Origin: an uncultured Gammaproteobacteria bacterium
GTDB taxonomy: Bacteria > Patescibacteriota > Microgenomatia > Daviesbacterales > UBA10151
Assembly (NCBI GenBank): GCA_964522265.1
Contig: CAZFVS010000034.1
Location: 1,501-9,410 of the forward strand
Direction of reading: 5' to 3'
Length of the DNA stretch: 7,910 nt
Below, piece after piece: positions 1-7,910 of this stretch. Within the stretch, counting starts at the first letter, position 1; every line of letters starts with the position of its first letter. The notes beneath the pieces are model-generated. The model did not search any database. It saw only the letters and a program-made list of their open reading frames with translations, and was not told the DNA's origin. The position numbers were made by a program, and so were the translations under genes.

Positions 1-580
1 GGACCCTTCCTGCAGAAAGACCTCTTTTGACTTTTTTCCAAAGCAGAGGAGAAAGTTTATACCCCACCAGTCTGTCCAGCACCCGCCTGGCTTGCTGCGC
101 ATCAATCAGCTGATAATCCAGATCGCGCGGGTGCTTAAAAGCCTCTTTTATCGCATCCTCTGTAATCTCATGGAAAATCACTCTCCGGATTTCGGATTTC
201 GGATTTCGGATTTCGGATTTTTTCATTTTGGCTTTTGACTTGCTTGTCTCGAGTCTTTCCGAGGGATGACTTTTGATTTCAGAGTTACACAGCAACTCTG
301 AAATATGCCAGGCAATCGCTTCCCCTTCCCGATCAGGATCTGTTGCCAGATAGAGGGTTTTAGCCGATTGGGCAAGTTTTTTTAATTCATTAACCTTTTT
401 CCTTTTATCCCTGGGAATGATATATTTAGGCTCAAAATTTTGCTCCACATCCACTCCAAGCTCGGATTTGGGCAAATCTCTGACATGACCCATTGAAGCT
501 TCTATCTGATATTTAGCTCCCAAAAACTTTGAAAGCGTCCGGGCTTTGGTTGGTGATTCAACAATAACTAAATTTTGCAT
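1..580 (-). CDS. topA: DNA topoisomerase I, N-terminal (TOPRIM) part; the ORF continues past the left edge of the window
   Basis: Hand translation of the minus strand from ATG at 580..578, with no stop down to base 2: [97 protein letters not shown]...[60 protein letters not shown]. It carries the type IA topoisomerase hallmarks VIVESPxKA, GHxRDLP, [12 protein letters not shown], NAQQARRxxDRxVGYxxSPLLWKK and GLSAGRV. It is absent from the supplied ORF track only because it has no stop inside the window. Confidence 0.9.
186..220 (-). repeat. Perfect heptanucleotide tandem repeat, (cggattt)x5 on the plus strand = (AAATCCG)x5 on the coding strand, inside topA
   Basis: Read directly: five identical head-to-tail 7-nt units from 186 to 220. 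In the topA frame they encode [12 protein letters not shown]. The unit length is not a multiple of 3. Confidence 0.95.
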
Positions 581-605
581 ATATTTACTTTCTGGTAATT
601 GTATC

Positions 606-635
606 TTGCTTGTCAAGTAGCAGGTATGCTAAATT
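606..635 (+). promoter_or_regulatory. Putative sigma70-type promoter for the 642..938 ORF: -35-like TTGCTT (606-611), 18-bp spacer, extended -10 TGcTAAATT (627-635)
   Basis: Motif match by eye only. Counting 7 nt from the last base of the -10 hexamer (635) puts +1 on A642, the first base of the ATG. No SD-like sequence lies between. Confidence 0.25.
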
Positions 636-640
636 AGCAT
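626..640. promoter_or_regulatory. Perfect 15-bp palindrome ATGCTAA-A-TTAGCAT (7-1-7), an operator-like site in the topA / 642-ORF divergent intergenic region
   Basis: Read directly: the reverse complement of 626-632 equals 634-640. It overlaps the putative extended -10 and ends 1 nt before the ATG at 642. On the other strand it lies 9 nt upstream of a perfect TTGACA (616..611). Confidence 0.5.
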
Positions 641-641
641 C

Positions 642-938
642 ATGTTAACTAAACAGGACTTGGAAAAAACCCTTGCTAAAATTCTGGATAAAAAGTTGGA
701 GCCAATAAATGAAAGTCTTAACAGTGTAGCGGAAAAGGTTGAAGGTTTAGAAGATTTTAGAACAGAGATGCAAGACTTCCAAGCGGAAACTAAGAAAGCT
801 GCAAAACGCATGGAAAAACGGATAAAGAAAGTCCAAAGAACTTTAGATAGCTATATCGAGGTTTCAGATGAAACTATTCAACAGACTCGAAGAAGGGTTA
901 ATAAAATTGAAGACCACCTCAAACTCCCTGCTGTTTAA
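642..938 (+). CDS. Hypothetical small (98 aa) highly charged, predicted all-helical / coiled-coil protein
   Basis: ORF track entry. The sequence is K/E/Q/R/L rich with heptad-like spacing (LEKTLAKILDKKLEPINESLNSVAEKVEGLEDF...RRRVNKIEDHLKL). It has no TM segment and no motif I recognise. It fills the whole gap between the topA control region and the 3' end of the ATPase gene. That it codes for protein is not proven. Confidence 0.5.
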   Translation: MLTKQDLEKTLAKILDKKLEPINESLNSVAEKVEGLEDFRTEMQDFQAETKKAAKRMEKRIKKVQRTLDSYIEVSDETIQQTRRRVNKIEDHLKLPAV

Positions 939-3472
939 GAATTATTTAAAAGGCTGGCGTCTGCTTTAAACAACTCACCTTTAACCAACCTGTTTTCCAA
1001 CATCATTTTGGAAAGATTTGCTTCTAAGGTATCCTGGATTAATCTGCGCATGGGACGAGCGCCCAAAACAGGGTCGAAACCTTTTTTGGCAAGTCCTGTG
1101 ATAAGATCCTGAGAAAACTCAAGCAGATACCCCTGTTCTTTCATTTGTTTTGACAAAGCATCAAGTTTCAACCTGACTATCTTCTCTAAATCAGGTTCTG
1201 ATAGGGGTTTGAATATGACAATATTGTCAAAACGGTTTACCAGCTCCGGTTTAAAAATTTTGAGCAGTTCACCCCGGACTGTTGTATCAATCTGATTCTG
1301 GATCCGACCCTCTTTCAGCTCCTGCGCTATCAGCAGGGATGCTGCATTCGAGGTAGCGATAATAATAGTATTTGTAAAATCTGTCAGTTTACCTGCTGCA
1401 TCAGTCAATCTCCCGTCATCTAAAACCTGCAGAAAAAGCGTCAAGATGCGCATATTAGCTTTTTCAAATTCATCAAGAAGTATTAATGCATATGGTTTAT
1501 TTTTAACTGCTTCCGTCAACTCTCCGGGATTTTCCAGCGTACCGATCAGACGGTTAACAGCTTCTTCTGTCTGGTACTCAGACATGTCAAAACGTATGAA
1601 AGCCGCCGAGTTTTTAAAATAAACACTGGCCAGAGTTTTTGCAAGTTCAGTTTTGCCTACCCCCGTAGGACCAACGAAAAGGAATGAGCCGATCGGACGC
1701 GATCCCTCCCTCAGCGCTGTAGCGGACCTTCGCAAAGTATCAGACACCACCTTAACAGCTTCTTCCTGATCAATCAATTTTTGGTGGATAATATTTTCAA
1801 GGTCAAGGAGGGTCTGTTTTTGGGAGGCGTCCAGCTCGATTACCGGCACATTAACCCTGCTTTGAAAGACTGCCTTCACCACCCCGGAGGTAATCAATCC
1901 GGTTTTTGCGGCAGCCTCACATTCAGTTAAAACAGACAGCGCTGAGTCAGGCAGAACCCGGTCATGAATCAGCCTGGCGCTCAAAGCTGCAATTTCCTTC
2001 AGAGCAATATAGGTTATTGTTATCCCTTTATTCCTGGCTAAACTTATTGCCTCGTTTTTAAGTATCAGGACCGTATCTGCCTCCGTTGCAGGAGAAAGCT
2101 CCACCTTATGAAAAACTCTGGCAAAACTCCCATTTTTCTCAATAATCCTGGCATAATTTTCCGGTTCAGTTGTGGCAAGAAACTGGAAGGTATTTGATTC
2201 TAAGTAAGGCAAAAGAAGTGAATACAGGTTAAAATTGCTACCCGCTTCCCCCAGCCCTAAATTATGAAGCTCATCTATGAAAATAATTATATCGCCTACA
2301 AATTGGACATCTTGAAAAATATCCTGAACTTTTTGGGCCAACTCCCCTTCAGTAGTAATACCGGATAGCAGTTTGGTAAAATCTATTTCAACCAGCCTCT
2401 TAATAGCCAGCGCCTCGGGGGCATCCCCTGCAATAATCAGTTTAGCCAGATATTTAACCAAGGCAGTCCTTCCCGAACCAGGAGAACCGACAATCAGCAC
2501 ACTTCTGTCTTTTTCCTGAGAAAGAATGTTTACTACTTCGGATACTATTGCATTTTGCCCCACAAAATCCGGGAAGCCTAAAGCTGCAGCATTGCGGGTT
2601 AAATCTTCTGAAACGCTGTCTAAATTCGGAGTCGGTGCAGACAACCAACCCCTGTTAACACCTCTTAAGTGCTTTACGGCAAAATCATCATCCCATATAA
2701 AAACTTTCCGCCATCTGTTTCTCTTAAATTCTAAAAATAGCAGTGCACCCTCAAGATCGCGGGAAGTCAGGTTAACTTTCAAAAGGTCATTCTGAATCCC
2801 CGGAATCTCCAACAGCATCGCCGTCCAAAAATAGGCCGGGGTAATAAACCTGGCTTGGGTTAATTTGGCAAGCTGCCAGACTTTTGCCAGAATATCATCT
2901 TTAAACTCCACCTGATGGCTGTCGAACCTATCCGGTTTAAGCTCTAAGCTAAAAAGAAAGCTGCTTACCTCATCGCTCTTCAACAAATTCTGCCAGATTA
3001 TATCTTTACGCTTCAGTTTAGTAGTCTGCCACAAATCTTCAGTTTTTTTAACCTGCCAAACAGATTTGGGCGGGCTGCTAAATAATCTGTCAATAAACAA
3101 AGCTGCACCAAGCAAAACAATAAAGGAAAAAGCGATCACTACATCAGGTTCAGACAGAAATGGTATCTGTTGAAAAAGGAGAGAAAATAGCAAAAGCGGC
3201 GGTGCCAAAAACCAGGCCAAAGCAACAATTACAATCACCATGCTTGCCAAAACAAAGGCCAGAATCCCCATTAGTATTCTGGATAGCCTGAAAACAAAAC
3301 TTAGAATTTTTCCAACAATGGACGAGTCATGAAAAAGAGGGACAAACAACAACTTAAGCATCAGCCCTACAGCCAGATCCTCTTCCAGAACCATGAGTGA
3401 GTTGTGGTAAACCCGGAGGAATACTATTAGCGCTTGCGGATACCAAAATTGTATTAAATATATGGGCAGCAT
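935..3472 (-). CDS. Membrane-anchored two-ring Clp/Hsp100-family AAA+ ATPase (ClpA-like D1-D2 layout, no M-domain, atypical D1 and pore loops)
   Basis: 845-aa ORF. The N-terminal ~130 aa are hydrophobic (ILMGILAFVLASMVIVIVALAWFLAPPLLLFSLLF, VVIAFSFIVLLGAALFI). D1 motifs: TPNLDSVSEDLTR, Walker A GSPGSGRT (aa 329-336, nt 2465-2488), Walker B IIIFIDELH, LPDSALSVLTE. D2 motifs: Walker A GPTGVGKT (nt 1649-1672, checked at nucleotide level), Walker B LILLDEFEKA, sensor-1 IIATSNA, NRFD, sensor-2 GARPMRRLIQ. The start at 3472 has no SD and M27 is an alternative, so the exact start is uncertain. Confidence 0.9.
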   Translation of the reverse strand: MLPIYLIQFWYPQALIVFLRVYHNSLMVLEEDLAVGLMLKLLFVPLFHDSSIVGKILSFVFRLSRILMGILAFVLASMVIVIVALAWFLAPPLLLFSLLFQQIPFLSEPDVVIAFSFIVLLGAALFIDRLFSSPPKSVWQVKKTEDLWQTTKLKRKDIIWQNLLKSDEVSSFLFSLELKPDRFDSHQVEFKDDILAKVWQLAKLTQARFITPAYFWTAMLLEIPGIQNDLLKVNLTSRDLEGALLFLEFKRNRWRKVFIWDDDFAVKHLRGVNRGWLSAPTPNLDSVSEDLTRNAAALGFPDFVGQNAIVSEVVNILSQEKDRSVLIVGSPGSGRTALVKYLAKLIIAGDAPEALAIKRLVEIDFTKLLSGITTEGELAQKVQDIFQDVQFVGDIIIFIDELHNLGLGEAGSNFNLYSLLLPYLESNTFQFLATTEPENYARIIEKNGSFARVFHKVELSPATEADTVLILKNEAISLARNKGITITYIALKEIAALSARLIHDRVLPDSALSVLTECEAAAKTGLITSGVVKAVFQSRVNVPVIELDASQKQTLLDLENIIHQKLIDQEEAVKVVSDTLRRSATALREGSRPIGSFLFVGPTGVGKTELAKTLASVYFKNSAAFIRFDMSEYQTEEAVNRLIGTLENPGELTEAVKNKPYALILLDEFEKANMRILTLFLQVLDDGRLTDAAGKLTDFTNTIIIATSNAASLLIAQELKEGRIQNQIDTTVRGELLKIFKPELVNRFDNIVIFKPLSEPDLEKIVRLKLDALSKQMKEQGYLLEFSQDLITGLAKKGFDPVLGARPMRRLIQDTLEANLSKMMLENRLVKGELFKADASLLNNS

Positions 3473-3491
3473 AGAAAAAATTTTGAACTTT

Positions 3492-3854
3492 TCACAAAAC
3501 CCTTATCACATTGCCTGTAGGGTCAAGCTCCACAAAATGTTTAGCCCGGCCTTCACGAAAAGCCTGGCATTGATTTTCCGGCAGGTCGTCAACCGGTTGC
3601 CTGGGACTATGGGCAATATCAGCAACCCAACCAGGTAAAAGGTCATTAGTAAGGCATGGCCCATCTGAAAAATCTACACCCAAATCTTTTTTTCGTTCAT
3701 AAACAACTCTGGCCTGGTTCACCACACGATCCAGCTCATTTGAAACTCCGGGTTTATAATCCATATCCTTTTTTTTATTGGTGGTAAAGATCACTATGGT
3801 TACGAAACCAATCACCACCAAAACCAACAATAACAATTTTGAATTAAAGTTCAT
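3492..3854 (-). CDS. Hypothetical small signal-anchored / exported protein (120 aa from the ATG at 3854) with two conserved-looking cysteines
   Basis: The ORF track gives 3492..3932. That start would overlap the dprA 3' end by 50 nt and add a non-descript 26 aa. The internal ATG at 3854 gives MNFNSKLLLLVLVVIGFVTIVIFTTNKKKD..., a classic short N-terminus plus one hydrophobic helix. A soluble ~90-aa domain follows (..DGPCLTNDLLPGWVADIAHSPRQPVDDLPENQCQAFREGRAKHFVELDPTGNVIRVL). It is 28 nt downstream of dprA and 19 nt upstream of the ATPase gene. Confidence 0.6.
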   Translation of the reverse strand: MNFNSKLLLLVLVVIGFVTIVIFTTNKKKDMDYKPGVSNELDRVVNQARVVYERKKDLGVDFSDGPCLTNDLLPGWVADIAHSPRQPVDDLPENQCQAFREGRAKHFVELDPTGNVIRVL

Positions 3855-3882
3855 ACCATAATTGTTGCATGCGGCAACCTGC

Positions 3883-4977
3883 TTAGCAAGTCCGGTTAAT
3901 ACAGTAATTGCCTCCACCCAAGTTTTTAACAAACCCCATTATCTCCATCTTTACCAATGCAGCGCTTACTTCTGACGATGATTTTTTAAGCTCTCTCACC
4001 ACATCATCTACATGCTTCTGCTCATTTTCCAAACACCCAAGTATTGCTTGCTCAACTGCTGATAAATTTTCATAATTTTTTTCTTTTTCCTTTTTACTTT
4101 TTACTTTTTCCATCCCCAGCTCTTCCAAAATATCCTCCACACAAGTCACAAGTTTTGCCCCCTGCTGGATCAGTTGGGCCGGACCTTTTGACAAATCTGA
4201 GGTGATAGGACCGGGGACGGCAAACACATCCTTACCCTGATCCACCGCTAATCTGGCAGTTATCAGGGAACCTGAATCCTGTGCTGCCTCTGTCACCAAA
4301 ACCGCCAAAGATAAACCGGAGATAATCCGGTTCCTGGAAGGAAAATTGCCTGCCAGGGAAGGATAGTCAGGCGGGTATTCGCTGATGAGTGTACCACAAC
4401 CATTGGCAATCAGTTCAGACAAACCGATGTTTTCCGGCGGGAAGATTGAATTTAGCCCTCCTCCCAACACAGCCAGAGTCCGACCCTTTCCGTCTAAGGC
4501 CGATTTGTGAGCCTGTGTATCTACACCCCTTGCCAACCCTGAGATAATTGTAAATCCGAAAGACACCAGCTCCCTGGTAAACCGCTCCGTCACCATCCTA
4601 CCATACCCTGTCATCTTCCTGGTTCCCACCACGCCAATGGCCCGTCTGTCTTCCGGTAAAATCTCACCCTTGTAATAAAATAGAACCGGCGGGTCATAAA
4701 TTTCTTTCAAAGATTTGGGATAATCCTCATCAAAAACAGTCATCCATTTTATGCCGGATTTTTTAATTGAATCTTCGTAGCTTAAAGGTTCTAATTTTTT
4801 GCGTGTTTCAATCAGAAGGTCAATAACTTTCTCCGGAATCCCCAACCCTAAAAACTCTTTTCTTTCCGCTTCCCAGGCAGTTTTAGGATCCTTAAAATAC
4901 TCCAACAGTGTTTTGAGCCTGATCGGCCCCAAACCATCTATGGAATGTAGAGCCAAAAGATATGAAATATTTTTCAT
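3883..4977 (-). CDS. dprA: DNA processing protein A (DprA/Smf), full length: N-terminal SAM-like domain, Rossmann-fold core, C-terminal winged helix
   Basis: 364-aa ORF with the characteristic DprA core: GLARGVDTQAHKSAL, GRTLAVLGGGL, FPPEN, GTLISEYPP, FPSRNRIISGLS, VLVTEAAQDSGSLITARLAVDQGKDVFAVPGPI. A K/E-rich linker comes next, then a WH-like tail (EQAILGCLENEQKHVDDVVRELKKSSSEVSAALVKMEIMGFV). Confidence 0.92.
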   Translation of the reverse strand: MKNISYLLALHSIDGLGPIRLKTLLEYFKDPKTAWEAERKEFLGLGIPEKVIDLLIETRKKLEPLSYEDSIKKSGIKWMTVFDEDYPKSLKEIYDPPVLFYYKGEILPEDRRAIGVVGTRKMTGYGRMVTERFTRELVSFGFTIISGLARGVDTQAHKSALDGKGRTLAVLGGGLNSIFPPENIGLSELIANGCGTLISEYPPDYPSLAGNFPSRNRIISGLSLAVLVTEAAQDSGSLITARLAVDQGKDVFAVPGPITSDLSKGPAQLIQQGAKLVTCVEDILEELGMEKVKSKKEKEKNYENLSAVEQAILGCLENEQKHVDDVVRELKKSSSEVSAALVKMEIMGFVKNLGGGNYCINRTC

Positions 4978-4985
4978 AACACATT

Positions 4986-5014
4986 AGCCTCACAAGGCGT
5001 CCCCTTTCGAGGCT
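4986..5014 (-). promoter_or_regulatory. GC-rich imperfect hairpin in the mrdA-dprA spacer whose 3' arm contains the dprA Shine-Dalgarno (GAGG)
   Basis: Minus-strand RNA reads AGCCUC-GA-AAGG-GGACG-CCUU-GU-GAGGCU. That is a 6-bp outer stem (4986-4991 / 5009-5014), one G.U, one mismatch, a 4-bp inner stem (4994-4997 / 5003-5006) and a 5-nt loop. GAGG (4991..4988) lies 10 nt upstream of the dprA ATG (4977). No U-tract follows, so it is not a canonical intrinsic terminator. Confidence 0.4.
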
Positions 5015-5021
5015 GTACAAA

Positions 5022-6881
5022 CTATTCCCCCAATTTGGCTGAATCTGAGGCAACATAATTTGTGTCTTTGATCAGATTAGTTTTATCAGTTGAGAGAAAC
5101 CACCTGTAAATCTCTTTGGCAACAGGGGCTGCAACTGATGAACCTTCCCCTCCACCCTCTATCAGTACTGTCATTACTAGCTTAGGCTCATCGATAGGTG
5201 CAAACGAGGTATACCAGGCATGTGTTTTCCCTTTAGCATCTCCATACTCTGCTGTCCCTGTCTTCCCTGCTGTTTGTATAGGGAAGGTAAAAAATGGCCA
5301 GGCTGTCCCCCCTTCTTTCGTCACTTCTTTCAACCCCTCTTTGACAAGCTCCAAATATTTGGGTTTAAATGCCTTTAAAACAGACTCACTGAACTTAAAT
5401 TCTTTGATAGTTTGACTATTACTGTTTGTGATCTTCAGGCCTAAGTGAGGGGGAAATTGTTTCCCGTCTGTTGCGATGGTTGAAACCAGGTTGTTGATCC
5501 CAAGCGGGGTCGCCAGAACAAATCCCTGCCCTATTGACATATGGAGTGTATCCCCGGGGTACCATATTTCACCTTTATTTTTCATCTTCCACTCCCTATC
5601 CGGCACTATGCCTACCGCTTCTCCGGGAATATCTATCCCGGTCTTCTTACCCAGCCCAAGTTGCTTGGCAGTTGATGCTAAAACCTCCTCTCCGACAGTT
5701 TGACCCAGCAGGTAGAAAAAAGTGTCATTTGAGCGTTTAAAAGCTTTAACTATATCCATCGACCCCTCAAGTTTGCCATACTGTGTAAAATACCAGTTGC
5801 TGAAACTAGAACTGCCAATATTTATTATCCCGATATCTTCAAACCTGGTCTTATCAGTAATTTTACCGGAAACAAGACCTGCTAGGGCAGAGACTATCTT
5901 AAATGTAGATCCGGGGGGATAAACTCCTGCCAACACCCTGTTTAAAATGGGGGAGTCTTCCCTATCCAGGGCTTCAGAAACCTTTTGTGGGTCAAACGAA
6001 GGATAAGAAACCAGTGTCAGGACTTCCCCGTTTAATGGTTCAACACCGATTAAACTACCGCAGCAACTTCCTGCTTTCTTAATAGCTTCCTCTAAGAGGC
6101 TGTATGCAACATCCTGCAGGTCAGCATCTATTGTAAGAAATAGATTTTGTCCGGGGATAGCATCATTTTTTCTCAAAGTCCTGACTTTTTTACCCTGAGC
6201 ATCAACTTCTATTATCTCACCCCCATCTATCCCCCGAAGCACCCTCTCATAAGCCTCCTCTATTCCACCTCTACCTATTAAATCTCCGCTTTTGTAATTT
6301 TTATAACTGGGGTTTTTTAACTCTTCTGCTGTAATTTCACTTACATAACCTAAGACGTGCGCCATTTTTGCACCTTTAGTGTAAGTTCTGATGCTATCTA
6401 TTTCCAGGTTTTCAAAGGCTGAATCACCTTTAATCTCCATTTTCAATGCATCATCCCGCGAAAGCCGAATAATTTTGGTATTTCCTATCAATCTAAAAGC
6501 CGGTTCATTTTGAGCCAGGATTTTACCATTTCTATCGTAGATTACACCACGGGGCGCATGGATTACCTTAGTTTGAATTCTGTTTGAGTCGGCCAGCTCC
6601 CGATTATTTTTCCCTTCAATTATCTGCAGGTTGAATAACCTGATAAGGAGTATCGAAAAAACTACCATTAAAAAGATTATAAATATCAGTCTTCTCCAGG
6701 GGCCTGAAAGCGGAGGGACAACATTGTCAATATAAGGATTATCTCTTTTTGAGAATTGCCCTGATAATAAAAGGTCGTCATAGGCTTCATTTTCTTTGGT
6801 GTGGGAATGGAAATGGCCGAATTTGAATGCAGCTTTTTTCAGAGTATCCGGAAATGCTTTTCCAAAACGGAATTTAGCCAT
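5022..6881 (-). CDS. mrdA: Penicillin-binding protein 2 (elongasome class B transpeptidase)
   Basis: 619-aa ORF with one TM helix (LIFIIFLMVVFSILLIRLF), a pedestal/dimerisation region (RGVIYDRNGKILA) and the transpeptidase motifs SxxK (GSTFKIV), SxD as in PBP2 (RSNDTFF) and KTGTA. It sits directly after mreC-mreD. Confidence 0.9.
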   Translation of the reverse strand: MAKFRFGKAFPDTLKKAAFKFGHFHSHTKENEAYDDLLLSGQFSKRDNPYIDNVVPPLSGPWRRLIFIIFLMVVFSILLIRLFNLQIIEGKNNRELADSNRIQTKVIHAPRGVIYDRNGKILAQNEPAFRLIGNTKIIRLSRDDALKMEIKGDSAFENLEIDSIRTYTKGAKMAHVLGYVSEITAEELKNPSYKNYKSGDLIGRGGIEEAYERVLRGIDGGEIIEVDAQGKKVRTLRKNDAIPGQNLFLTIDADLQDVAYSLLEEAIKKAGSCCGSLIGVEPLNGEVLTLVSYPSFDPQKVSEALDREDSPILNRVLAGVYPPGSTFKIVSALAGLVSGKITDKTRFEDIGIINIGSSSFSNWYFTQYGKLEGSMDIVKAFKRSNDTFFYLLGQTVGEEVLASTAKQLGLGKKTGIDIPGEAVGIVPDREWKMKNKGEIWYPGDTLHMSIGQGFVLATPLGINNLVSTIATDGKQFPPHLGLKITNSNSQTIKEFKFSESVLKAFKPKYLELVKEGLKEVTKEGGTAWPFFTFPIQTAGKTGTAEYGDAKGKTHAWYTSFAPIDEPKLVMTVLIEGGGEGSSVAAPVAKEIYRWFLSTDKTNLIKDTNYVASDSAKLGE

Positions 6882-6886
6882 ATTGA

Positions 6887-7336
6887 TTACGATTTCAGCC
6901 GCAGTTTAATATCCGGCCGGACAACAAACCTTTCCTCCCAAAAATTGATCAAAAGAAATGCCGGTATAAGCAGCACCATCTCCACTGCCACAATTTTCGG
7001 GTTGATATTTTGATGGTAAACTACGGACTCAACAATTGACACCAGCAGAATCAGCAATACGGCTGTTGTGACTGTAGCGAATATGTTGGCAAGAGGTGGA
7101 GATTTTTTAACAAACTGGCAGACGGCAACGACAATCAAGAAAACAAACGGCCAAAATCCCAAATTTACCGAAGATAAAACCCCCAGTAAAATACCCCCAA
7201 AAAATGCAGCAAATAAGTTAGAGCGCTCCTGAACTATTAAACTTCTGGCTATTAAAAGAATCAGGCAAAGGTTAACAGACAAAAATGAAGTCTGGATAAA
7301 CATAGCCAGTATCAGAAGCAATATAAATAATTTCAT
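6887..7336 (-). CDS. mreD: Rod shape-determining protein MreD (polytopic membrane protein)
   Basis: 149-aa very hydrophobic ORF with ~4-5 predicted TM segments. It lies 20 nt after mreC and 5 nt before mrdA, the canonical MreD size and position. The call rests on context and hydropathy, because MreD is poorly conserved in sequence. Confidence 0.7.
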   Translation of the reverse strand: MKLFILLLILAMFIQTSFLSVNLCLILLIARSLIVQERSNLFAAFFGGILLGVLSSVNLGFWPFVFLIVVAVCQFVKKSPPLANIFATVTTAVLLILLVSIVESVVYHQNINPKIVAVEMVLLIPAFLLINFWEERFVVRPDIKLRLKS

Positions 7337-7356
7337 AAAGCGGTCAGTAATGGAAA

Positions 7357-7910
7357 CTAATTTGTTATTATAAATAATATATCCAAATTCGAAATATCAA
7401 ACATAGGCTTGGCTTTGGCCTGTTTAAAAATCTGGTTGTCGGAATCTACAACCTCGGTAACCCGACCCAGTACCAACCCTCTCGGAGTTTCACCCTCTGT
7501 TCCTGCAGAATAAACCAGGTCCCCTTTATCGATAGGCTCCTGGTGCAAAATCTTATCAAACAGCATCTCTGAGCCAAACTGCCCCAGGAGCACCCCTTTA
7601 GCCCGCCCATTCGGATTGAAGCTATAGACAGCTATTTTAAAATCAGGATCCGAAGTGAGCAAGACTTTTGATTTTTTAGGACTCACCTCTTTTATCTGGC
7701 CTATAAAATTATCTTTGTAAACCACAGACATATTAATTTTCAATCCATCTTCCGATCCTTTATCAATAAATAAATATCTCGTTAGTCCGACCGGGCGGGC
7801 CGGTACCAGGTTAAAAGTTTTTGGGTTTAATGTTTTTTGTTGTTCTAAAAAACTTTGGGTTTCAGAAAGCTGGCGCCTCAGATTGGCATTTTCAGAAATA
7901 ATCTGAGCCA
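7357..7910 (-). CDS. mreC: Rod shape-determining protein MreC, 5' end outside the window
   Basis: The track starts this ORF at a TTG (7743), but the frame stays open to the right edge. Hand translation of 7744-7908 gives ..AQIISENANLRRQLSETQSFLEQQKTLNPKTFNLVPARPVGLTRYLFIDKGSEDGL, continuing into KINMSVVYKDNFIGQIKEVSPKKSKVLLTSDPDFKIAV... This matches the MreC coiled-coil followed by the IDKGSxDG / VVxxxxxxGxVxEV beta-domains. Confidence 0.88.
   Translation of the reverse strand, partial: AQIISENANLRRQLSETQSFLEQQKTLNPKTFNLVPARPVGLTRYLFIDKGSEDGLKINMSVVYKDNFIGQIKEVSPKKSKVLLTSDPDFKIAVYSFNPNGRAKGVLLGQFGSEMLFDKILHQEPIDKGDLVYSAGTEGETPRGLVLGRVTEVVDSDNQIFKQAKAKPMFDISNLDILFIITN

Follow-up and report, generated by a model that had tools for sequence, protein, structure and literature searches.

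The 7,910-nucleotide (nt) stretch of contig CAZFVS010000034.1 analyzed here (the window) carries on its minus strand the gene of a membrane-anchored, two-ring AAA+ protein of the Clp/Hsp100 type, in which both pore loops lack their aromatic residues while the active site of the second ring (D2) is intact. We read this protein, hereafter the ATPase, as a Clp/Hsp100 paralogue that would have been turned from a polypeptide-threading unfoldase into a membrane-bound, non-threading ATP-driven machine, and we give this reading a probability of about 0.55. Within it, the proposition that D2 probably hydrolyzes ATP but that the ATPase could not thread polypeptides in the canonical way is strongly backed by evolution, as judged from the sequences of its relatives.

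For the D2 loop, phmmer alignment with solved ClpB structures (1qvr, 6oax) gave RLIGT------LENPGELTEAV, leaving a clean 6-residue gap over PPGYVG. The segment (nt 1505-1552, minus strand) translates to RLIGTLENPGELTEAV, exactly the string given in a preliminary description of this DNA, and the RLIG and LTEAV flanks, which had been claimed to align cleanly, do so around the deletion in the profile alignment as well. An AlphaFold2 model built with a 94-sequence family alignment places a tight turn here (residues 644 to 650), with DSSP bridges at 644 and 649, a helix following at 651 to 658 and a predicted local distance difference test score (pLDDT) above 90. For the first ring (D1), nt 2333-2371 (minus strand) translate to LLSGITTEGELAQ, and phmmer against the same ClpB structures paired LLSGITTEGELAQK with LLAGAKYRGEFEER of ClpB. 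The preliminary description had identified the right D1 loop; only the string it quoted, LSGITTEGELAQK, is shifted by one residue (aa 369-381), which is trivial. The conserved pore-loop Tyr of ClpB is missing in D1, where TTE stands for KYR, and in D2, where it belongs to GYVG, so the earlier claim that both aromatics are absent is borne out by the phmmer and profile alignments and by the translations of both loops. When the 94-sequence profile was aligned to ClpC, ClpB, and ClpA, the loops fell at the same positions and no alternative aromatic-hydrophobic-Gly loop was found in either ring. We infer the geometry of the pore only from alignment and secondary structure.

The D2 engine, by comparison, is complete. 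Walker A, Walker B (in the segment LLLDEFEKA), sensor-1, the Arg finger, and sensor-2 are all present, as had been claimed, and the active-site residues are invariant in 120/120 close homologues and in nearly all distant ones. These counts come from a word-indexed search that returned 430 homologues, the best 120 of which were used as the close family; they are nearly all full length (809 to 897 aa), share 54 to 75% identity with the ATPase and, where named, come from Daviesbacteria or Patescibacteria. The length of the D2 loop was scored as the spacer between DMSEY and Walker B, which measures 31 aa in the window protein and 37 aa in canonical Clp proteins. All 120 close homologues have the 31-aa spacer, with no gaps in columns 641 to 656 and an invariant G650, and an aromatic residue occurs anywhere in the D2 loop in only 7 of them. 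In D1, the Tyr slot of the same proteins is mostly filled by Thr (76), Ser (17), Asn (11), or Gly (6) and never by an aromatic residue, and an aromatic residue stands anywhere in the loop in a single homologue. Among 72 distant representatives, the slot holds Ser (18), a gap (15), Thr (13), Asn (7), or Gly (7), with no aromatic among the residues listed. The preliminary description had proposed a check for decay among orthologues; loop length was identical in 120/120, with no frameshifts and no variable indels. The deletion is a conserved trait and not decay.

As a control, 80 loci from a genome-contig scan with the family alignment were scored, comprising 70 canonical Clp genes and 10 loci of the Patescibacteria type. 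The scan was driven by GPTGVGKTE-type patterns and was dominated by canonical ClpC and ClpB; it yielded about 10 family loci, none from Daviesbacteria. The G[YF][VI]G motif was kept in 70/70 canonical genes, which span Firmicutes, Proteobacteria, Actinobacteria, Chloroflexi, Cyanobacteria, and other phyla, with a spacer of 37 aa (38 in two). In 10/10 Patescibacteria-type loci, the loops were shortened, degenerate, or unscorable. Since every canonical gene keeps the motif, its absence from the family is far beyond chance.

The wider family was sampled with an exhaustive HMMER search over 1.84 billion cluster representatives, from which the best 150 matches (32 to 62% identity) were taken. Nearly all are two-ring proteins of 780 to 940 aa with hydrophobic N termini. 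Their D2 spacers vary, at 25 aa in 5 proteins, 26 in 1, 31 in 18, 32 in 13, 33 in 47, 34 in 3, 35 in 10, 36 in 7, 37 in 32, and 38 in 2, and the canonical Tyr-slot aromatic is retained in only about 6 of the 150. In a rough neighbor-joining tree without bootstrap, computed from D1 and D2 with the loop columns removed, one branch split the 70 canonical proteins off from the 161 family members without exception; on this rough tree, the family appears monophyletic apart from canonical ClpA/B/C/E. Fitch parsimony on the tree gave an ancestral spacer of 37 aa and about 60 length changes within the family. The D2 loop has thus drifted in length repeatedly and independently while the active site stayed invariant, which indicates that the loop is unconstrained and the active site constrained. 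Such erosion beside an invariant active site is what one would expect of a motor that is still at work and a loop that has lost its function.

Names on the members include Daviesbacteria, Saccharibacteria, Parcubacteria, Buchananbacteria, Magasanikbacteria, and Falkowbacteria. The family is apparently a large, Patescibacteria-wide and undescribed variant of Clp/Hsp100: no paper describing a membrane-anchored or pore-loop-less bacterial Hsp100 was found in a literature search of incomplete coverage, which is absence of evidence only. Public data contain an identical protein as well as a homologue of 75% identity, the latter named Candidatus Daviesbacteria. Family-type proteins with degenerate D2 loops lie on three metagenome-assembled contigs titled "uncultured Gammaproteobacteria bacterium" (L007, L015, and L021), of which L015 matches query residues 9 to 844; either the family reaches beyond Patescibacteria or these bins are mislabelled. 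Two further proteins (P0149 and P0150) fall on the family side of the tree. They are about 1,020 aa long, are hydrophobic only at the extreme N terminus, have no internal transmembrane (TM) hairpin and match the query in three stretches, and one of them keeps SPPGYVNHEEGGQ; they may be early-branching or differently built relatives.

Beyond what the preliminary description had noticed, the ATPase has a degenerate D1 ring and a retained Clp_N-like domain, and its N-terminal membrane module exists elsewhere as a separate partner gene. In D1, the catalytic Lys of Walker A is replaced by Arg. At this position, the 120 close homologues have Lys in 103 and Arg in 17, and the nearest of them (P0002, 76% in the 120-homologue alignment) shares the Arg. 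The RRF pair has lost its second Arg, a position occupied by Leu (57), Ile (47), or Val (15) and never by Arg in the same 120 proteins. We take this second Arg to be the canonical D1 finger (R332 of E. coli ClpB and R334 of Hsp104), and the substitution suggests that D1 is without it. In the 72 distant members, the Walker B Asp/Glu of D1 and the residue equivalent to R452 are often lost as well. Because Walker A, the RRF Arg, and, in distant members, Walker B are degenerate, D1 is best read as a structural or nucleotide-binding ring.

The membrane module occupies the first 135 residues. Nine residues of its invariant motif (P45, H48, D49, G54, S58, F61, R62, R65, and G69) are identical in 120/120 homologues. 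The two hydrophobic helices of the module, together with the distribution of Lys and Arg, uphold the earlier claim of a membrane anchor. Four Lys/Arg residues precede the first helix, none lie in the loop between the helices and eight lie in the segment after the second (aa 132-165), so a hairpin with both ends in the cytoplasm is predicted. No significant Pfam or NCBIfam match was found for the module, its stand-alone versions or the small protein encoded upstream of the ATPase, and Foldseek of the N-terminal model gave no PDB fold match for aa 1-135. When the N-terminal 146 aa were used as the query, a homologue search yielded nothing but fragments of this family and showed no new architectures.

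In Parcubacteria-type members, the motif-bearing module is encoded by a separate gene of 107 to 146 aa directly upstream of the ATPase. The gap was at most 4 nt, or the genes overlapped, in 8/8 loci examined (L002, L005, L006, L014, L087, L088, L089, and L090). In alignment A4, the split modules match aa 1-100 of the window protein, P45, G54, and R62 being invariant. They share with it the signature [P-x-W-W-Y] ... F-x-P-[LM]-[FY] ... G-R-x-[IL]-S-F-x-x-R followed by a TM helix; in the window protein, the module is fused to the ATPase. Split modules have one TM helix, and in the fused form the second helix brings the chain back to the cytoplasm; this difference makes topological sense. A profile search found 71 small module proteins, which include a few fragments of fused forms; every named one comes from Patescibacteria. 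The arrangement is fused in Microgenomates and separate in Parcubacteria and Saccharibacteria. Since module and ATPase are fused in one lineage and tightly paired in operons elsewhere, they are likely to work together. In L006, an uncalled open reading frame (about 3630-3995, plus strand, third frame) directly upstream of the ATPase encodes a stand-alone module (…FPVWWYSRGL…GRPMYGDYTRSGRIISFFFRL…). Parcubacteria-type ATPases begin with two CxxCxGxG motifs resembling the DnaJ-type zinc finger, a possible protein-binding element, followed by their own TM segment and a Clp_N domain.

The remaining architecture is that of the Clp clade. Pfam matches in the 845-aa ATPase are AAA (325-451), AAA_lid_9 (464-524), AAA_2 (592-751), and ClpB_D2-small (757-833). 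It thus carries two Clp-type AAA+ modules and a D2-small domain, as ClpB-class proteins do, and a Clp_N-type N-domain ahead of D1 and D2, as in the broad Clp/Hsp100 superfamily. ClpC gave the highest profile score (768 bits). The NCBIfam models for ClpB (TIGR03346, 448.1 bits) and ClpA (TIGR02639, 407.5 bits) matched strongly, far below their equivalog cut-offs of 1232.1 and 993.15 bits. When D2 alone was compared with the PDB, the D2 of ClpB came first at 268 bits, and ClpB, ClpC, Hsp104, ClpA, Skd3, and ClpX ranked highest. The AlphaFold2 model is confident (pLDDT, 93.2; predicted template modeling score, 0.87), and in Foldseek both rings superposed on ClpC and ClpB protomers of substrate-bound hexamers (root mean square deviation, about 4 Å; about 570 columns; TM-score, 0.8). 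A separate model of aa 1-285 (pLDDT, 92.9), used as a Foldseek query, matched almost only Clp N-domains (ClpB, ClpC1, ClpC, and ClpA; best probabilities, 0.95 to 0.98; about 100 to 114 columns) with weak E-values of 0.26 and above; the N-domain of ClpC also aligns to the family profile, and Pfam Clp_N was found in distant homologues.

Two elements of canonical relatives were not found. The M-domain is the DnaK-coupling element of ClpB. Neither phmmer nor the family-profile alignment showed a counterpart of ClpB residues ~425-528 or ClpC residues ~405-461; D1 ends at about aa 525, D2 starts at about aa 535, and ClpA aligned as a single uninterrupted stretch. Since this coiled coil is absent, there is no obvious coupling to DnaK in the ATPase. 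The VGF or [LIV]-G-[FL] tripeptide after D2 sensor-1 is the ClpP-docking element. In the family profile, a gap takes the place of the ClpC insertion of 6 to 7 residues that bears it (kyVGFn), and sensor-1 and NRFD are spaced in the ATPase as in ClpB. The absence of this insertion leaves the database name "Clp protease ATP-binding subunit" unsupported.

Besides the ATPase gene, the minus strand of the window carries mreC, mreD, a PBP2-type transpeptidase gene, dprA, the gene of a small signal-anchored protein, and the 5' part of topA. Daviesbacteria (the window, L001, and L003) keep the order mreC-mreD-PBP2-dprA-small protein-ATPase-topA. The small protein carries a conserved GPCLTNDLLPGWVADIAHSPRQ...ENQC...EGRAKHFVELDP and occupies the same position in L001 (70% identity) and L003 (54%); it is lineage-specific in Daviesbacteria and distinct from the conserved membrane module. 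The convergent 98-aa open reading frame at the ATPase stop codon recurs in L001 (12532-12783, minus strand; 52% identity), again convergent with the ATPase gene, and this conserved position makes it probably a real gene. A promoter and terminator scan found no minus-strand terminator between dprA, the small open reading frame, and the ATPase and was otherwise uninformative. With the exception of one small reading frame, every long open reading frame of the window (1-7910) lies on the minus strand. The GC skew stays below zero over the whole length (cumulative, -1.9), and both features would fit a single co-oriented gene block on one replichore. Adjacency of dprA and topA is widespread in other bacteria, and the ATPase block therefore looks like an insertion between them in Daviesbacteria. 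A functional link of the ATPase to dprA and topA was dropped as a candidate: the adjacency is widespread, and it is not kept in the Parcubacteria or Saccharibacteria loci.

In Parcubacteria, the order is module, ATPase, a transferase of the WecA/MraY family, and DUF192, with gaps of at most 10 nt. In L088, the module-ATPase-transferase block comes after mraZ, rsmH, and an FtsL-like gene and resembles a division and cell-wall cluster. Such recurrent neighborhoods point weakly to cell-envelope biogenesis.

A canonical Clp protein with intact loops coexists with the atypical ATPase in the same genomes. In the Falkowbacteria locus L089, a canonical Clp gene (1-2241, minus strand) with the Clp_N/NBD_SMAX1 Pfam signature, a spacer of 37, GSPPGYIGHEEGGQ, and an intact GYIG loop lies about 2 kb from an atypical module-ATPase pair (4374-7022, plus strand). 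Southlakia epibionticum encodes a ClpP (SEML1_0493) and a canonical ClpC (SEML1_0512) that contains two Clp_N repeats and a UVR motif; neither gene is essential (Wang et al. 2023, PMC10633639). It also encodes SEML1_0700, an 860-aa "AAA family ATPase" with AAA, AAA_2, and D2-small but no Pfam Clp_N, whose start is overlapped by the 127-aa hypothetical gene SEML1_0701; in transposon sequencing, both scored NE, NE, GD (PMC10633639, Tables S1/S2). Read counts fell from 4124 to 1638 for SEML1_0700 and from 258 to 51 for SEML1_0701, and MurT/GatD-like genes adjoin the pair (PMC10633639). These two genes are probably orthologues of the ATPase family and its module. With L089 and this probable counterpart, the atypical ATPase is a paralogue of canonical Clp. 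The features of the window and of the homologous loci are collected in Table 1.

Table 1. Features of the ATPase, its neighbors, and homologous loci (window coordinates unless a locus is named)
Feature	Position	Strand	Evidence or remarks
ATPase gene, 845-aa membrane-anchored two-ring Clp/Hsp100-type AAA+	935..3472	-	Open reading frame list, Pfam, model
N-terminal membrane module (aa 1-135)	3068..3472	-	WY-containing helix, conserved cytoplasmic motif, TM hairpin
Invariant motif LLFVPLFHDSSIVGKILSFVFRLSRILMG (aa 41-69)	3266..3352	-	Column counts
Predicted TM helix 1 (aa 66-92)	3197..3277	-	AlphaFold2 helix 52-99; no charged residues; 4 K/R on N side
Predicted TM helix 2 (aa 109-131)	3080..3148	-	AlphaFold2 helix 109-132
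Clp_N-like helical domain (aa ~140-255)	2708..3055	-	Foldseek, profile alignment
D1 AAA+ module, degenerate (aa 285-525)	1898..2620	-	Pfam; aligns to ClpB/ClpA D1
D1 Walker A GSPGSGRT, K335R (aa 329-336)	2465..2488	-	Sequence; Arg for catalytic Lys
D1 pore-loop-1 equivalent SGITTEGE (ClpB, AGAKYRGE)	2342..2365	-	Alignments; Tyr slot is T374
D1 RRF pair reduced to R452-V453-F	2114..2119	-	Aligned to ERRF of ClpB; second Arg lost
D2 AAA+ module and D2-small domain (aa 535-840), catalytically intact	953..1870	-	Pfam; ClpB D2 is best PDB match
D2 Walker A GPTGVGKT (K607)	1649..1672	-	K607 in 120/120; invariant in 94-sequence alignment
D2 pore-loop remnant RLIG-TLENPGE-LTEAV	1505..1552	-	Alignment, translation; GYVG deleted, 6 aa short of canonical
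D2 Walker B LILLDE (D667, E668)	1469..1486	-	120/120 homologues
D2 sensor-1 N709	1346..1348	-	120/120 homologues
D2 Arg finger R747 (NRFD)	1232..1234	-	120/120; invariant in 94-sequence alignment
D2 sensor-2 R806 (GARP)	1055..1057	-	120/120 homologues
topA start	1-580	-	
Convergent 98-aa coiled-coil-like open reading frame	642..938	+	Overlaps ATPase stop codon by 4 nt
Small signal-anchored protein, ~120 aa	3492..3854	-	19 nt upstream of ATPase
dprA	3883-4977	-	
WecA/MraY-family polyprenyl-phosphate sugar-phosphate transferase and DUF192	L002 10783-12293; L087 7158-8384; L088 7158-8363		2-10 nt after ATPase
CxxCxGxG zinc-finger region	L002 8001-8200; L005 4001-4200; L087 4388-4600; L088 4366-4560	+	

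We propose that D2 would be the sole motor and D1 a nucleotide-binding or purely structural assembly ring. A presumed hexamer would be attached to the cytoplasmic side of the membrane, where the membrane module would hold it or serve as its docking site, and D2 ATP turnover would power conformational work on either a client near the membrane or the module. Contact with the client would be made via the Clp_N-like domain, in split forms also via the DnaJ-type zinc finger, and the client would not be pulled through the axial channel. A more specific version is possible, though tentative: the pair might be a bacterial two-component counterpart of the torsin principle, in which a non-threading D2 acts on or through a dedicated small membrane protein for envelope assembly in bacteria of the candidate phyla radiation (CPR).

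Several points weigh against a non-threading envelope machine. The D1 loop retains its canonical length, and F414 in the D1 secondary-loop region is a conserved hydrophobic or aromatic position in close homologues (Phe in 71, Leu in 27, Tyr in 13, and Met in 6). Some AAA+ rings translocate with non-aromatic loops. The Clp_N-like domain and, in split forms, the DnaJ-type zinc finger are retained, which indicates that members of the family probably still act on proteins. The link to the envelope is one of guilt by association and does not hold everywhere, as L004, L005, L006, and L090 differ, and the orthology of SEML1_0700/0701 rests on length, domain layout, and gene arrangement, not on sequence comparison. 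The main rival is residual threading with non-aromatic loops, which we consider unlikely. Here, the ATPase would still be a translocase in which the remaining loop residues (G-I-T-T-E in D1 and L-E-N-P in D2) or F414 pull polypeptides, its candidate substrates being already-unfolded chains or membrane-protein segments, as in a low-grip motor for membrane extraction or quality control. Besides the D1 loop length, F414, the Clp_N-like substrate/adaptor domain, and the zinc finger, the conservation of Y417 within the close family and the superposition of the protomer on substrate-bound ClpB and ClpC protomers speak for it. However, the D2 loop is cut to a 4-residue turn and wholly removed in relatives with a spacer of 25, and its length and sequence drift freely across the clade, unlike those of any substrate-gripping element. 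F414 is poorly kept in distant members (Ile in 18, Ser in 12, and Leu and Ala in 11 each, among others), and the sole full-length loop sits in the catalytically degenerate ring D1.

The other explanations are far less probable. A catalytically silent scaffold or regulator like plant SMAX1/D53, using its AAA+ fold for binding only, would fit the loss of both pore loops, the degenerate D1, and a weak PDB match to SMAX1, but the invariance of the D2 catalytic residues in the 120 close and nearly all distant homologues is hard to explain without ATP hydrolysis, and we see only a small chance for it. Very little credence can be given to a Clp protease ATP-binding subunit. Database names of homologues say so, and sequence similarity to ClpC and ClpA is strong; against this stand the missing VGF-bearing insertion with its ClpB-like sensor-1-to-NRFD spacing, NCBIfam scores far under the cut-offs (407 versus 993 bits for ClpA and 448 versus 1232 bits for ClpB), the loss of the pore-loop Tyr, and the fact that at least one Patescibacteria genome has canonical ClpC and ClpP as separate genes. 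Specific common ancestry with torsins is equally improbable. The Clp/Hsp100-like fold, membrane association, loss of aromatic pore loops, and membrane-protein partner are shared, but the ATPase has two rings rather than one and its own D2 Arg finger (R747), where torsins have none; its D2 is closest to that of bacterial ClpB, no torsin appears among the 60 matches listed of 204, and its partner, a small helical TM protein, does not have a degenerate AAA+ fold. An anti-phage defense component resembling the ClpB-type ATPases DolB or PDC-M37B is less probable still: the PADLOC matches over D2 (DolB, 115 bits; PDC-M37B, 117 bits) are far weaker than the ClpB match (448 bits) and extend over nothing but the generic D2 fold, the neighborhood contains no defense partner, DolA-like or otherwise, and the context is conserved housekeeping, with the family flagged as core in Saccharibacteria. 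The PADLOC assignment was therefore dropped as generic D2 similarity. Least probable of all is a decaying gene or pseudogene that lost its loops by drift. Loop sequences do differ among subfamilies, but the listed close clusters are nearly all intact reading frames of 809 to 897 aa with fixed loop length and invariant active sites, the AlphaFold2 model is of high confidence, and disruption of the probable Saccharibacteria counterpart causes a growth defect.

No mechanical element of Hsp100/Clp unfoldases is more conserved than the pore-loop tyrosines. A membrane-bound clade that dropped both loops, kept its D2 engine, and has an obligatory membrane partner suggests a different use of the motor, and this clade comprises more than a hundred 50%-identity clusters from several Patescibacteria lineages. 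It adds a conserved membrane-associated machine to the small core proteome of CPR bacteria. A systematic annotation error is also corrected, as the label "Clp protease ATP-binding subunit" is attached to proteins without the ClpP-docking loop. In addition, the family offers a bacterial system for asking how a pore-loop-less Clp-type ATPase works, a question that also applies to torsins. Southlakia epibionticum is a genetically tractable relative, in which disruption of the probable counterpart and disruption of the partner gene upstream of it lead to the same mild loss of fitness.

Among known systems, ClpC and ClpA are the nearest by profile score, their N-domain is homologous at the profile level and the short D1-D2 junction of the ATPase resembles that of ClpA; unlike them, the ATPase has no [LIV]-G-[FL] docking insertion, no UVR or M-motif, and neither pore-loop Tyr. 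ClpB and Hsp104 share two AAA+ rings in the same protomer fold, the most similar D2 among solved structures, the lack of a ClpP-docking loop, a Clp_N-type N-domain, and identical D2 catalytic residues. In contrast to these disaggregases' rings, those of the ATPase have no Tyr in either loop, its D2 loop is 6 aa shorter and its D1 is degenerate, and it is membrane-anchored without an M-domain. Like the ATPase, FtsH, Msp1/ATAD1, and Bcs1 carry an N-terminal TM anchor that places the AAA+ ring, presumed in the case of the ATPase, at the cytoplasmic side of a membrane. They are single-ring proteins of the classical AAA clade; both aromatic pore loops and substrate threading are retained in FtsH and Msp1. 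SMAX1/D53 likewise puts a Clp-derived double-ATPase architecture to a use other than unfolding; however, it matches weakly (33 bits), is soluble and nuclear, and its ATPase motifs are far less well conserved than those of the window protein.

Torsins offer an analogy: like the ATPase, they have a Clp/Hsp100-derived fold, are associated with a membrane, lack aromatic pore loops, and depend on, or are linked to, a partner protein in the membrane. Torsins are considered unlikely to thread substrates, and they lack an Arg finger of their own, borrowing it from LAP1/LULL1 (PMC5425593). They differ in having one ring and very low ATPase activity, with degenerate AAA+ folds as cofactors, whereas the ATPase here is double-ringed, retains its D2 Arg finger, and is paired with a small helical TM protein. 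The preliminary description had rightly called the resemblance an analogy, given the two rings, the Arg finger, and a D2 closest to bacterial ClpB. Since no specific sequence affinity to torsins was found among the 60 D2 matches listed, the resemblance appears to be convergent. If the ATPase is indeed a counterpart of the torsin principle, it would represent a non-threading working mode of Hsp100 machines that arose independently of the eukaryotic torsins.

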